From IMG/VR virus record IMGVR_UViG_3300031344_000001: DNA of 64,000 nucleotides; one strand, 5' to 3'. The DNA comes from a virus (lineage: Duplodnaviria; Heunggongvirae; Uroviricota; Caudoviricetes). Position 1 is the first letter of the stretch. The number at the start of each line of letters is the position of its first letter. This document shows positions 13,530-57,993 of this stretch, one piece after another. The notes below the pieces were generated by a model. It did no database searches and was not told the origin of the DNA. It saw only the letters and a list, made by a program, of their open reading frames with translations. The position numbers and the translations under genes are program-made.

Positions 13530-13976
13530 TCAAGACCCCAGCCGCGGAGCCAGGTGGGCGAGGTGCGGGGCGAGCACGACCTGGCCACCGGCCTCTTGTA
13601 GCTGCTTGGCGCTCGCAACGACCGCGTCTTCGTACTCCTTCGTCGAGGGGTATCCACGCTCTTGCGCCATCTGCGCGATCTGCGAAGCCGCCGGGGCGGG
13701 GAGGCCCATCGGCTGTGGAGCACCAGCCAGCGACGGCACGAACGCTGGCGACGGCAGGCCCATCGAGAGCGGTGGCAGCCCGGTCGGCGGCACAGGCTCG
13801 TCGCCGGCGTGCCCGATCTCTGGAGGGAGCTTCGCACCGCGGGGCCACATGAACCAGATCACGCCGCCGACGCCCACGACGAGCGCCAGTTTGACCCAGC
13901 CCCCGACGCCGCCGCGGCGAGGGACTCTCGCGAGTTGCTCCTCGCCGTAGTAGCCGCGTCCATATCCTGCGCTCAT
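13530..13976 (-). CDS. single-pass membrane protein with RGYYG motif
   Basis: GGAGG SD; hydrophobic WVKLALVVGVGGVIWFMW. Confidence 0.7.
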   Translation of the reverse strand: MSAGYGRGYYGEEQLARVPRRGGVGGWVKLALVVGVGGVIWFMWPRGAKLPPEIGHAGDEPVPPTGLPPLSMGLPSPAFVPSLAGAPQPMGLPAPAASQIAQMAQERGYPSTKEYEDAVVASAKQLQEAGGQVVLAPHLAHLAPRLGS

Positions 13977-14007
13977 GAGACCTCCTTCTTGTCGACGGCT
14001 GACCAGT

Positions 14008-14256
14008 TCATCGATTCCCTCGACGACGAAACGCGGTTGCTTGAGGCACTTCAGGGACGACACCGGCCAAGAACACGTGCTGACGACTGCCGTCGGGCAT
14101 CTCAAGCCACAGCATCACAGATCCAGCACTCGAAGCATCAACTTCTCGTGCGAACCCCGTCACGCGACGGCGTGGGATCCCCGAGGAGGCTGCGGTGACG
14201 AGCTTGCCGAGATAGCTCTCGGCAATCTCACGTTCGAGGTACGCCGTCTTCCCCAT
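14008..14256 (-). CDS. hypothetical protein
   Basis: TGATG-coupled ORF. Confidence 0.5.
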   Translation of the reverse strand: MGKTAYLEREIAESYLGKLVTAASSGIPRRRVTGFAREVDASSAGSVMLWLEMPDGSRQHVFLAGVVPEVPQATAFRRRGNR

Positions 14257-14741
14257 CAGGCACCGTTTCCGAGCTGCCGACGGGGCTCGGTCGACGGCTT
14301 CTTCGAGACAGCGCTAGCGACCATGAGTGCCTCGTAATACTCGAGGCTCGCTTGCGCCAAGAGCGCGAGACCAACGCGAGACATCCCCTGGTCAGCGTCG
14401 ATTCCATGCCGCGCGTTCACATACGCGAACGCTGCAAGCTTGAGGCGCTGCCGCGCGCGCCCCACCTCGGGGGAGTCAACCCCGTCCTCGTGCTGGAAGT
14501 AAGCGTCGACCGGACGCTTCACTGGGGCAGCCCCCATGAGCGCCTCGAAATACTCCAGGGACGTCTGCGCCAGGAGCGCAAAACCGGCACGCGCGGTGTC
14601 CGCATCTGCGTCGACCCCGTGGCGCGCGTTCACGTACGCGATCGCGGAGAGCTTGAGCTTCTGGCGCCCGTGACCGGCCGCGTGCGAGTCGCCAGGGCTC
14701 GAACCGTTGCCGGGGCCGTTGAAACGCGCGTGCGACGGCAT
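14256..14741 (-). CDS. hypothetical protein with internal duplication
   Basis: two copies of RQ.LKL.A.AYVNARHG.DAD....R.G.ALLAQ.SLEY.EALM. Confidence 0.7.
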   Translation of the reverse strand: MPSHARFNGPGNGSSPGDSHAAGHGRQKLKLSAIAYVNARHGVDADADTARAGFALLAQTSLEYFEALMGAAPVKRPVDAYFQHEDGVDSPEVGRARQRLKLAAFAYVNARHGIDADQGMSRVGLALLAQASLEYYEALMVASAVSKKPSTEPRRQLGNGA

Positions 14742-14829
14742 CGATCGATCTGTACCACGAAGGCTTCGATTCCGAGATCCCCGTCGCACGGCTGTCAGAT
14801 CCCACGACCCTCCGGCGTCTAGCCCGTAG

Positions 14830-15246
14830 ATGATCAGGCACGCCGACAGCCACCTCGACCACGGCCTCACCGAGGCCCATCTCCGCTACCTCCTCGATCG
14901 GTTCGCCGATCGAAACGGCTTCTTCATCGAGACAATCGCCCTCCCTGTCGAATTGGGGACCGTCCCATGCAGTCTCTACGGCCCCCTGATGGGCGACGCG
15001 CCGATCGACGAGGATGCCGTCACATACGCCGTACGCGGCACACGCACCTGGCCGTCACGCCTGGTCAATCTTCCAGCTCGACCGCAGCACGCGGTAACAG
15101 TGATCGGCGGCCCGCACGAAGAGGCGCTGTGCGTCCTTTACACCGCCTTCGGCGGACCGGCAGCCCCCCAGGAGCCAAACGATCCGAGCTGCAAGGACCC
15201 AGGGACGAGCGCCGCGTTCTGGCGGCAGCACGCTCTTGCACAGTAG
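14830..15246 (+). CDS. hypothetical protein
   Basis: ORF; DSHLDHG, LYTAFGGP.APQEP, FW..HAL. Confidence 0.75.
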   Translation: MIRHADSHLDHGLTEAHLRYLLDRFADRNGFFIETIALPVELGTVPCSLYGPLMGDAPIDEDAVTYAVRGTRTWPSRLVNLPARPQHAVTVIGGPHEEALCVLYTAFGGPAAPQEPNDPSCKDPGTSAAFWRQHALAQ

Positions 15247-15347
15247 GTCAGCTCGGCGAGGCACTCGGAGCGGCCCTCAAGCCTGTCGAGGCACAGCTCC
15301 TGCGGATGGCACCAAGCTCGCGACGTATGACGCTGACGCTTCGCAAC

Positions 15348-56125: not shown

Positions 56126-56274
56126 ATTCGATGCCCTTTCGAGTTTCAGCGCGCCTCCCTCGTCAACGAGGAAGTGCCACGCTCATTCGTCTTCTTCGTT
56201 TTTTGCGCTCGAGCGAGGAATCGAACCTCGCGTGACCACTTTCGAGCTACCTTCCCGACGACGTGCGACGCTGA

Positions 56275-56520
56275 CTACCAGCCTTCGCGCGCCCAGTGAC
56301 CGGCCACGCCTCCGTAGCCAGGCACCCAGCGCCACCCCGGGTAGTACGCCGGCTGCTGCTGCTGGTACTGCTGCTGCTGCTGCTGGTACTGCCACCACCG
56401 CTGCTGCTGCCACTCGGGCAGCCGCTCCCACTCCACGCGCGATCGCTGCCACGCGGTGGGGGCCCTGCGCCGCCACCAACGCTCTTCGCCGACGTACGTT
56501 CCGTAACGTCCGCGACCCAT
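56275..56520 (-). CDS. Gln/Trp-rich small protein (RGRYG)
   Basis: starts 2 nt after the upstream stop; MGRGRYGTYVG. Confidence 0.65.
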   Translation of the reverse strand: MGRGRYGTYVGEERWWRRRAPTAWQRSRVEWERLPEWQQQRWWQYQQQQQQYQQQQPAYYPGWRWVPGYGGVAGHWAREGW

Positions 56521-56522
56521 GG

Positions 56523-57317
56523 CTACACCGCCGCCGTGCCGACCATCGCCCCGAAAAAGGGACAGCCGGACTCGTTGAGGCCGATGTACGTGACCACGAC
56601 GACGACGTCCATCGCCGTCTGCGCCGCCTCGAAGCGAACGAACGTGTCGATCGCGTTCGTGGCGAACATGTCACCCGGGACGTCACCCGACTGGACGAAC
56701 TGCGACCGGTTGCCGATCTTGATGTCGTTGACGATCCAGTCGGCAGCACCGCCGGCCGTTCCGCCATTCGAGATCACGAAGCGACCGATCTTGAAGACCA
56801 GGGTCTGCGGACGACCCGTGATCTGCGCCGACTGCGTCGGCAGGATCGGCACGCCCGTCGACATCGGGAGGATGTCGCGGTTCGCCTGCGTCGGCAGCGG
56901 AGCGTCCACCACCGCCGCGCGCGCCTGGAACGGGAACTCCCCGAGCCCCTCCGGCACCTCCGCGCCGGTGCGCGACAGCACCTGTACCCCGGGATGCTGC
57001 TGCGCCCCGAAGAACGGGGACCGCGGCGTCACGGTGATGTTCGGGTGCCGGATCACGTGCGGCTGCGGGTAGTACGGCTGCTGCGGCTGCTGCCACGGAT
57101 GCGGCCACTGCTGCTGCGGCCACTGCTGCGGCCACTGCTGCTGCGGCCACTGCTGCTGCGGCCACTGCTGCTGCTGCTGCTGCTGCTGCTGCTGCTGACG
57201 CCAGTCAGGGTGGTGATCGTGGTGGTGCCTCCGATCATGCTCGTGGCCGACGACGTCGACCCACTTGCCGATCAGGGCTTGCACCTCGTTCGCACCCATG
57301 TACCCGCGCGACGCCAT
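56523..57317 (-). CDS. putative single jelly-roll capsid protein, copy 2
   Basis: poly-Q/WPQQQ N-terminus plus shared domain (56523-56936). Confidence 0.6.
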   Translation of the reverse strand: MASRGYMGANEVQALIGKWVDVVGHEHDRRHHHDHHPDWRQQQQQQQQQQQWPQQQWPQQQWPQQWPQQQWPHPWQQPQQPYYPQPHVIRHPNITVTPRSPFFGAQQHPGVQVLSRTGAEVPEGLGEFPFQARAAVVDAPLPTQANRDILPMSTGVPILPTQSAQITGRPQTLVFKIGRFVISNGGTAGGAADWIVNDIKIGNRSQFVQSGDVPGDMFATNAIDTFVRFEAAQTAMDVVVVVTYIGLNESGCPFFGAMVGTAAV

Positions 57318-57318
57318 G

Positions 57319-57993
57319 TCAGACCGCCGCGGTTCCGACCATCGCGCCGAAGAACGGGCAGCCGGACTCGTTGAGGCCGATGTACGTGACCACGACGACG
57401 ACGTCCATCGCCGTCTGCGCCGCCTCGAAGCGCACGAACGTGTCGATCGCGTTCGTCGCGAACAGGTCACCCGGGACGTCGCCCGACTGGACGAACTGCG
57501 ACCGGTTGCCGATCTTGATGTCGTTCACGATCCAGTCGGCCGCGCCGCCGGCCGTGCCCGCGTTCGAGATCACGAAGCGACCGATCTTGAAGACCAGGGT
57601 CTGCGGGCGACCCGTGATCTGCGCCGACTGCGTCGGCAGGATCGGCACGCCCGTCGACATCGGGAGGATGTCGCGGTTCGCCTGCGTCGGCAGCGGAGCG
57701 TCCACCACCGCCGCGCGCGCCTGGAACGGGAAGTCCGCGTACTGCTGCTGCTGGTGGTGGTGCTGCGGCATCGGCGGCGGGCCCATCGGGGGCGCGAACG
57801 GCGGCGGGGCCGGCAGCGACGGGGCGTCGGCGCCCATCATGGCGTACGGGTTGCGCTGGGCGCCGTAGCTGCCGCCGTACGGGCCGCGGTGGCCGTAGCC
57901 GAAGCCGACCTGCGGGCCGACGATGTCGTACCAGCCGGCGAGGAGCGCCTGCACCTGGTGGGGGTTGAGCTGCGGAGGACGGTGCGAGTGCAT
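57319..57993 (-). CDS. putative single jelly-roll capsid protein, copy 1
   Basis: G/Y/P-rich N-terminus plus shared domain (57319-57732). Confidence 0.6.
   Translation of the reverse strand: MHSHRPPQLNPHQVQALLAGWYDIVGPQVGFGYGHRGPYGGSYGAQRNPYAMMGADAPSLPAPPPFAPPMGPPPMPQHHHQQQQYADFPFQARAAVVDAPLPTQANRDILPMSTGVPILPTQSAQITGRPQTLVFKIGRFVISNAGTAGGAADWIVNDIKIGNRSQFVQSGDVPGDLFATNAIDTFVRFEAAQTAMDVVVVVTYIGLNESGCPFFGAMVGTAAV

Follow-up and report, generated by a model that had tools for sequence, protein, structure and literature searches.

In a 64,000-nt stretch of DNA from an uncultured tailed virus (Caudoviricetes; IMG/VR record IMGVR_UViG_3300031344_000001; the whole stretch is referred to as the window), a short peptide recurs mostly near the ends of small and largely unrelated proteins. 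Our data demonstrate that a clade of giant Myxococcota-associated phages has in this tag, [E/M]-N-x-R-G-x-Y-[G/S/R], a genuine short linear motif, and that it is selected as a peptide. Viruses and bacterial compartments use shared terminal peptides to direct groups of unlike proteins to their place; few are known in phages, where the capsid targeting sequence of T4 is the classic case. Selection on the tag is stronger than on the folded domains to which it is attached, and the tag lies in a nearly unannotated block of ~20 kb in a soil phage lineage of ~460 kb. A literature search for "RGxYG" did not find the motif in any paper.

An initial annotation of the window had listed ten exact RGxYG peptides, and a six-frame scan recovered all of them (m1 to m10, Table 1). 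The coordinates given there are not motif positions; they are the low (3′) ends of the respective minus-strand open reading frames (ORFs). All ten RG.YG matches are in coding frames of the minus strand, none was found in the other five frame/strand combinations, and 9 of the 10 fall within 40–58 kb. The GC content of the window is 62–71%, its genes are directed almost entirely along the minus strand, and the coding signature GC1 > GC2 < GC3 was seen in the frames of all ten matches. A strict coding filter was passed by the ORFs of seven matches, and the shuffling test was confined to these. Shuffling residues within the ORFs (2000 trials) gave a mean of 0.33 matches and a maximum of 3, versus 7 in the real sequences, and the 11 other orders in which R, G, Y and G can surround the free position occur 0–2 times each. 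As a composition-matched control we used 276 kb from 18 mostly Myxococcota loci (54–70% GC). Seven RG.YG matches were present in its six frames, none of them in the M-N-x or pre-stop setting, and this rate predicts ~0.5 matches for the region of 40–58 kb, versus 9 observed. A chance frequency had been named by the initial annotation as the outcome that would speak against a signal; the observed frequency is far above both controls.

Gene starts were refined by Shine-Dalgarno sites and by ATGA or stop-start coupling, which moved the start of m7 from 50265 to 50208. After this refinement six copies are found at residues 3–7 (m1, m2, m5, m7, m8, m9), mostly in genes with a Shine-Dalgarno sequence, three are found 3–18 residues before the stop codon (9 residues for m3, 3 for m4 and 18 for m6), and one copy (m10) is internal, which bears out the terminal placement described earlier. 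Within the window the synonymous positions of the motif codons vary (CGC/CGG; GGC/GGT/GGG/GGA; TAC/TAT), and the DNA flanking the motif is unrelated between copies, except for m8 and m9, where the upstream sequence is the repeated 3′ end of a jelly-roll gene. Since the wobble bases vary and the flanks are unrelated, selection acts on the peptide and not on the DNA. Together with the location of the copies inside ORFs, this rules out a nucleotide-level signal such as a promoter, a ribosome-binding site or a recombination site. When 103 distinct instances from the window, the loci of relatives and homologs were pooled, the consensus was [M/E]-N-[AGED]-R-G-[Q>E,S,T,H]-Y-G-[NSAT].

The motif is retained in relatives of ~40% identity, and two protein families allowed its conservation to be followed closely. 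For m5 we found 63 homologs, several of them on contigs of 230–500 kb. In 55 of these 63 RG.Y[GS] is present within the first 14 residues, as an M-N-x-RGxY[GS] start; 24 of the 63 have at least two copies, and the internal copies are located at module joints. An alignment of 25 m5 sequences has R4, G5 and Y7 invariant and N2 and G8 conserved to at least 90%, which is stronger than most of the core. Among the N-terminal and internal copies of this family, 76% have [VIL]G in the 14 residues behind the motif, versus 27% background. The VG noticed earlier behind the motif is thus supported as [VIL]G for N-terminal and internal copies; for C-terminal copies it does not hold. For m4, 48 of 49 homologs end in ..[ED]-N-x-RG[QE]YG-[KR][KR]P-stop behind a linker that is variable in length and sequence, with the tag within the last 12 residues and 1–5 (mostly 3) residues from the C-terminus. 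R72, G73, Y75 and G76 are invariant in this family, and N70 is conserved to at least 90%. Conservation in homologs, the second check that had been proposed, therefore also turned out in favour of the motif. Two further observations concern these families. After the transmembrane (TM) helix and an Arg-rich stretch, the m5 family (45043–46056 on the minus strand, P0001–P0063) ends in a second conserved peptide, ..R-x-LALPPGE.., and members of the m4 family share the conserved start TTPPPPRPPPPKHPLFT.

Six metagenome loci are syntenic with 39–58 kb of the window. They contain 26 RG.Y[GS] matches, all on the gene strand and at the orthologous termini of m2, m3, m4, m5, m6, m7, m8 and v46053, a carrier of a variant motif. 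Orthologs of m2 in L001, L003, L004 and L005 retain RG[TS]YGPLDRDRH; those of m3 end in ..NA-RGQYG-x10-stop (L001) and ..S-RGEYS-RRSW-stop (L004). EN.RGEYG is kept ahead of the His-rich tail in the orthologs of m6 in L001 (two copies) and L003, and the m7 orthologs in L001, L003 and L004 begin with M-x-x-RG[TIQ]YG. A parallel to m8 was seen in L001, where MAS-RGEYG-NELVG opens a Gly/Trp-rich protein directly after a jelly-roll gene. No ortholog of m9 was seen; its position parallels that of m8. In L002 (2–1130) and L006 (1155–2300) a protein starting with MNE-RGEYG joins a piece like residues 281–373 of a 985-aa protein to an m5-like C-terminal part, and this fusion is direct evidence that modules have been shuffled behind the tag. 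In IMG/VR, scans that used the 985-aa protein or the m5 alignment as query did not find relatives.

The tag is specific to this viral clade. As a DNA pattern, N-x-R-G-x-Y-G occurs 19 times in the 128 kb of the window and its relatives, always on the coding strand, versus 0 for the reversed control. Five Myxococcota genomes (50 Mb) have 12 matches versus 27 for the reversed control, so that the tag is ~600-fold denser in the viral loci. The stricter pattern M-N-x-RGQYG had no match in the five genomes and 53 scattered matches in 596 Gb from 185,579 prokaryote genomes. We read 19 of these 53 loci, selected by a GC content above 0.6 or a second RG.YG: in most of them the Met either sits within a long ORF or belongs to a tiny one, and a second terminal tag is lacking from all 19. 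Since the tag is not enriched in the five Myxococcota genomes or in the 596 Gb of prokaryote DNA, host mimicry is ruled out, and the tag is a property of the viral clade and not a copied host motif.

Table 1. Tag carriers of the window, the neighbouring enzyme and the jelly-roll genes (all on the minus strand)
Feature	Position	Strand	Motif position	Description
m1	13530..13976	-	13944-13958	148-aa one-TM protein; N-terminal MSAGYG-RGYYG; Shine-Dalgarno GAAGGAGG
m2	40316..41104	-	41078-41092	262-aa, C-terminal TM; N-terminal MSRE-RGTYG-PLDRDRHW
m3	41101..41556	-	41131-41145	151-aa, N-terminal TM; C-terminal ..ENV-RGEYG-HCARRGRLP-stop; ATGA-coupled to m2
m4	44807..45046	-	44819-44833	79-aa one-TM; ends ..NV-RGQYG-MRP-stop
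m5	45043..46056	-	46033-46047	337-aa, helical core and C-terminal TM; GTG start, (M)NA-RGHYG-RAVVG
v46053	46053..46409	-	46389-46403	118-aa hydrophobic; MN-RGSYS-TPLVG, variant motif
m6	49589..49861	-	49646-49660	90-aa one-TM; ..ENE-RGEYG, then 18-residue His-rich tail
m7	49867..50208	-	50182-50196	113-aa; MAND-RGHYG-SRSPRVG, then Gly-rich hydrophobic segment; GGAG Shine-Dalgarno
Transglutaminase-fold Cys-His-Asp enzyme	52788..53333	-		181 aa; 261-aa ORF 52788-53573 over-called
v53330	53330..53509	-	53333-53347	59-aa one-TM ORF, re-annotated; ends ..PT-RGHYR-stop
m8	54985..55323	-	55303-55317	112-aa Gly/His/Trp-rich; (M)P-RGVYG-TQVG; start 1 nt past stop of jelly-roll copy C
Jelly-roll copy C	55325-56125	-		tagged m9 gene between copies C and B
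m9	56275..56520	-	56500-56514	81-aa Gln/Trp/Arg-rich; MG-RGRYG-TYVG; start 2 nt past stop of jelly-roll copy B
Jelly-roll copy B	56523-57317	-		tagged m9 gene between copies C and B
m10	57319..57993	-	57874-57888	jelly-roll copy A; RGPYG internal, Gly/Tyr-rich N-arm

The carriers listed in Table 1 had been described as otherwise unrelated. This is mostly right: at least 8 carrier families have no detectable mutual similarity, and ~8–10 independent families are present in all. It does not apply to m2 and m5, which are distant paralogs, nor to m4 and m6, which are weakly alike. A clear hydrophobic helix is present in 7 of 12 carriers, 2 more have a Gly-rich one, and the other 3 are of low complexity. 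The gene for m1 lies outside the main block, just upstream of an intein-bearing ATPase; m1 is probably a member of the tag set, with surroundings of the motif that are rich in Gly and Tyr. Membership of m10 is uncertain, because only 3 of 150 jelly-roll family representatives carry the motif, and chance by composition could suffice to explain its copy.

Three variants had been listed beside the exact matches, and two of them could be retained. RGSYS of v46053 is counted as genuine, because its L003 ortholog (76% identical) starts with (V)N-RGIYG. RGHYR of v53330 is likewise genuine: three small TM ORFs in L001 end in RGTYR-stop, and the ortholog of the enzyme has two of these upstream of it. 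In the window, the enzyme has 181 and not 261 aa, and this frees the 59-aa ORF that terminates in RGHYR and shows ATGA overlaps at both ends, between the enzyme and its upstream gene. The third variant, RGYMG (56523), was rejected as it is part of the jelly-roll arm motif Y[LIM]GA.E..AL[IV]G.W, and RGFYR inside a 267-aa protein is probably due to chance.

For a structural view of the tag we considered the AlphaFold2 (AF2) model of an m5 homolog, P0026, in which the tag occurs twice. Its confident domains are a 75-aa alpha/beta module and a helical core, and both tag copies (residues 4–8 and 124–128) lie in segments with a predicted local distance difference test score (pLDDT) below 50 between confident domains. 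The tag is therefore located outside any fold and behaves as a short linear motif. It has the features by which such motifs are defined, namely a core of 7–8 residues, a disordered location, occurrence on unrelated proteins and better conservation than the flanks. According to the positive-inside rule it is on the cytoplasmic side for m4 and v53330.

The ~75-aa alpha/beta module (F..D.A..W ... Y.YAA.FD...WP.P) also occurs in three large proteins of the window (43178–44728, 46418–49375 and 53506–54186, all minus strand), and some m5 homologs have it as an insertion with an RGxYG copy on either side (residues 19–101 of P0026). Its pLDDT is above 90, and it had no Foldseek match; a Foldseek search with the model of the m5 homolog did not find a match either, the best E value being 0.15. 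As a reader of the tag in cis the module was rejected, since AF2 left both flanking tags undocked, which speaks weakly against this role.

How the tag acts can be read in several ways. We tentatively favour a position-independent docking or address label that acts in trans. The tag would be displayed on disordered N-termini, C-termini and inter-module linkers of small membrane-anchored and low-complexity proteins; one common, probably virus-encoded, factor would grip it, and this factor would gather the tagged proteins at one site during infection or assembly. We favour docking because the tag is position-independent, is often present in tandem (24 of 63 m5 homologs), can be found 3 residues from the C-terminus and is conserved at 5–6 of 8 positions including two glycines. 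A cut 3 residues from the C-terminus would free a mere tripeptide, and docking therefore fits better than cleavage. Some points weigh against this reading. The searches made did not find a reader of the tag, and three elements of this reading are inferred: binding in place of cutting or modification, the existence of just one reader, and the destination of the proteins. The topology is clear only for m4 and v53330 and is ambiguous for m2 and m5. Finally, the bipartite RGxYG-x(2-12)-[VIL]G on N-terminal copies, together with a conserved Cys-His-Asp enzyme, would fit a cleaved leader.

Similar labels are found in other systems. Encapsulin and microcompartment peptides are, like the tag, short, present at either terminus and attached by flexible linkers, and they dock cargo on one shell. 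These known peptides are hydrophobic GSL-type or amphipathic-helix sequences on soluble enzymes encoded next to a shell gene, whereas the tag is polar and Gly-rich and is found on membrane or low-complexity proteins, and Pfam and PHROG scans of the block proteins did not find a shell partner. The sliding-clamp-binding motif QL[SD]LF shares with the tag that it is short, disordered, located by convergence at either terminus of unrelated proteins and better conserved than its flanks. Hub-binding motifs of this kind serve known cellular hubs and occur in host proteomes; the tag, in contrast, is not enriched in Myxococcota or other prokaryotes. The tag also provides an experimental handle: a synthetic tag peptide (such as AQAENARGQYGKKP) could fish out the reader and a tag-GFP fusion could reveal the destination, and knowledge of both would give access to what the entire block does. 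With a specific reader, the tag could become a small orthogonal protein-recruitment tag.

The main rival, though itself rather doubtful, is a processing signal, with a virus protease cutting either after [VIL]G (the 181-aa enzyme) or between Tyr and Gly (the S8 subtilase encoded at 27411–28772). Cutting would free modules or mature the proteins, as for the substrates of T4 gp21 or phiKZ gp175, and a consensus of 8 residues is typical of viral polyprotein proteases. The position of the motif in disordered linkers at the module boundaries of multi-module homologs agrees with this, as does the excess of [VIL]G behind it. Candidates for the protease are at hand as well: an S8 peptidase is encoded in the window, and the block has a conserved enzyme with invariant Cys, His and Asp, preceded by TM genes ending in RGxYR-stop in the window and in L001. 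However, the C-terminal copies have no [VIL]G and are mostly located 3 residues before the stop codon, where a cut would gain little; tandem copies are common, and anywhere from 0 to 12 residues separate the tag from [VIL]G. Moreover, the enzyme could equally be a cross-linker or a wall hydrolase, its role in cleavage being putative.

Among known processed peptides, the sites of viral maturation proteases (E-x-x-Y-x-Q|G/S for potyvirus NIa, Gly-Gly sites of adenovirus and African swine fever virus, and S/A/G-x-E for phiKZ gp175) are comparable to the tag: they are conserved sites of 6–8 residues that lie in disordered linkers where modules meet, and a conserved Cys enzyme is encoded close by. 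Copies 3 residues from the C-terminus and tandem copies, as seen for the tag, are atypical of such sites, and cleavage is putative here. The capsid targeting sequence of phage T4 consists of the N-terminal ~10 residues of IPI-III and Alt and is cleaved by gp21 at an L/I-x-E site. Like the tag, it is a short peptide label on unrelated proteins of one large phage. It is strictly N-terminal, whereas the tag is also found C-terminally (m3, m4, m6, v53330) and internally, and it ends in L/I-x-E, whereas the tag differs in sequence and is followed by [VIL]G and not by L/I-x-E; the carriers of the tag are mostly membrane-anchored.

A bolder form of the docking reading, which we consider unlikely, takes the tag as a virus-specific sorting code that viral proteins in the host membrane, together with matrix-like low-complexity proteins, would display on the cytoplasmic side. 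One viral receptor (perhaps the 181-aa enzyme or the jelly-roll protein) would collect the carriers into a membrane-associated structure built by the virus, such as an internal virion membrane or an assembly compartment. If this were true, it would be the first time that a linear signal for the sorting of membrane proteins is seen in a prokaryotic virus, and it would be evidence that a giant phage has a membrane-bearing structure.

It is quite unlikely that the tag is a modification sequon, in which Tyr, Arg or Asn would be modified, e.g., glycosylated by the adjacent sugar/methyl-sugar cluster, on the flexible ends of the carriers. The motif is short, position-independent, sometimes tandem and in disordered segments, and the region of 17.9–39 kb encodes epimerases/dehydratases, methyltransferases, and glycosyltransferase-like and collagen-like proteins. 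But neither adjacency nor co-occurrence ties an enzyme to the tag, a sequon with seven conserved positions would be long, and the sugar genes may have other targets.

We regard it as very unlikely that the tag is a self-associating sticker, by which the carriers would enter a low-complexity condensate or gel without a reader, as with the [G/S]Y[G/S] plus Arg of FUS-type segments or LARKS (low-complexity aromatic-rich kinked segments). The tag has their Gly-Tyr-Gly character and resembles kinked Gly-aromatic segments in general; tandem copies occur, and among the products of the block are Gly/His/Trp-, Gln/Trp- and polyGln-rich proteins, of which two have the tag at their start. LARKS and FUS-type stickers, however, are present in many copies per low-complexity domain, whereas most tag carriers have a single copy on a membrane protein or one that is otherwise ordinary, and the strict Asn and Arg and the exact spacing would be odd for generic stickers. 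Bacterial amyloid signalling motifs comprise at least ~20 residues at the matched ends of adjacent genes' products, the C-terminus of one protein and the N-terminus of the next; the tag core has 7–8 residues, and touching matched tag ends are limited to the m3/m2 pair.

That the tag is free of function, and arose by chance in Arg/Gly-rich high-GC ORFs, by shared ancestry or from a nucleotide signal read in frame, is extremely unlikely: m2/m5 and m4/m6 are indeed distantly related, and m1 and m10 have the motif in Gly/Tyr-rich stretches, but the enrichment over shuffled and composition-matched DNA is 20- to 600-fold, orthologous termini retain the motif while the flanks diverge, wobble positions vary, and the other frames have no matches.

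The 181-aa enzyme is the most conserved protein of the block and a candidate for the reader of the tag or for a processing enzyme. We found 217 homologs, most of them with 165–181 aa; those listed are 45–87% identical. D91-C92, H143 and E165-D166 are invariant. Transglut_core was detected in 8 of 27 members (best E value 4.2e-6), the window copy being below the cutoff (E 0.008), and PDB sequence searches with the single sequence and with a profile gave no match. In the window and in L001 the enzyme gene is preceded by the ATGA-coupled, tagged one-TM genes ending in RGxYR-stop. A role of the tag as Gln donor for a transglutaminase was rejected, since Gln fills position x in just 1 of the 10 window copies and in about half of all instances. 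Distant homologs (28–52% identity) were seen in Polyangiaceae, Kofleriaceae and further Myxococcota, among them the isolate Polyangium sp. 15x6 (L007–L024), and RGxYG is not enriched around the enzyme homologs in these loci. A complex prediction for the m4 tail (residues 48–79, with alignment) and the enzyme plus the 137-aa jelly-roll domain gave a score of 0.00, which is below the mark and speaks neither way. The C-terminus of the enzyme, ..YTNGV, resembles that of a 511-aa protein (..TNGVF; 50419–51954, minus strand). In this protein the sequence ..(A)DYQRGSC.PPRDP.. is repeated four times in tandem, and a long PAA repeat is also present.

The three jelly-roll genes (55325–57993, minus strand) share a nearly identical C-terminal domain of 137 aa, which AF2 modelled as a jelly-roll with a pLDDT of 89. 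The best PDB matches are the SPV1 capsid protein (Z 7.4), GOLD domains (Z 7.1) and HHIV-2 (Z 6.8), none of them convincing; as the capsid and GOLD scores are nearly tied, the fold is a generic jelly-roll. The family (e.g., 55328–55750 of the window, minus strand; P0064–P0213) has 882 representatives at 50% clustering, and the tag is present in 3 of the top 150. Some members have 2–5 tandem copies of the domain, and some have N-terminal TM segments. Each jelly-roll stop codon is followed by the next start codon after 1–2 nt (TGAcATG, TAGccATG, TAGcGTG), an arrangement which suggests that the jelly-roll genes and the genes downstream are linked by termination-reinitiation coupling. A conserved leader distinct from the tag, Y[LIM]GA.E..AL[IV]G.W..[IV]VG, is found on the N-arms of the jelly-roll proteins.

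Between 39 and 60 kb essentially no Pfam or PHROG match was obtained, PHROGs gave none for ten block proteins, and the matches in the ESM Atlas were unnamed viral clusters only. The initial annotation had seen in the tag a signal marking virion components, and had named sorting, capsid docking, modification and processing side by side as its possible roles; our data do not firmly separate these four. A real, selected and portable signal was found; the link to the virion remains putative, as the block has no Pfam or PHROG match to structural proteins, the 137-aa domain is a generic jelly-roll, and the tag is rare in its family.

Outside the block, the window contains 29 tRNA genes (1089–6983), an ATPase gene interrupted by a Hint/homing-endonuclease intein (11410–13467) and a gene for a collagen-repeat protein (15749–16831), followed by a gene cluster (17904–39110) that includes epimerase/dehydratase, methyltransferase and HtrL/YibB-like genes and the S8 subtilase gene; all of these are on the minus strand.

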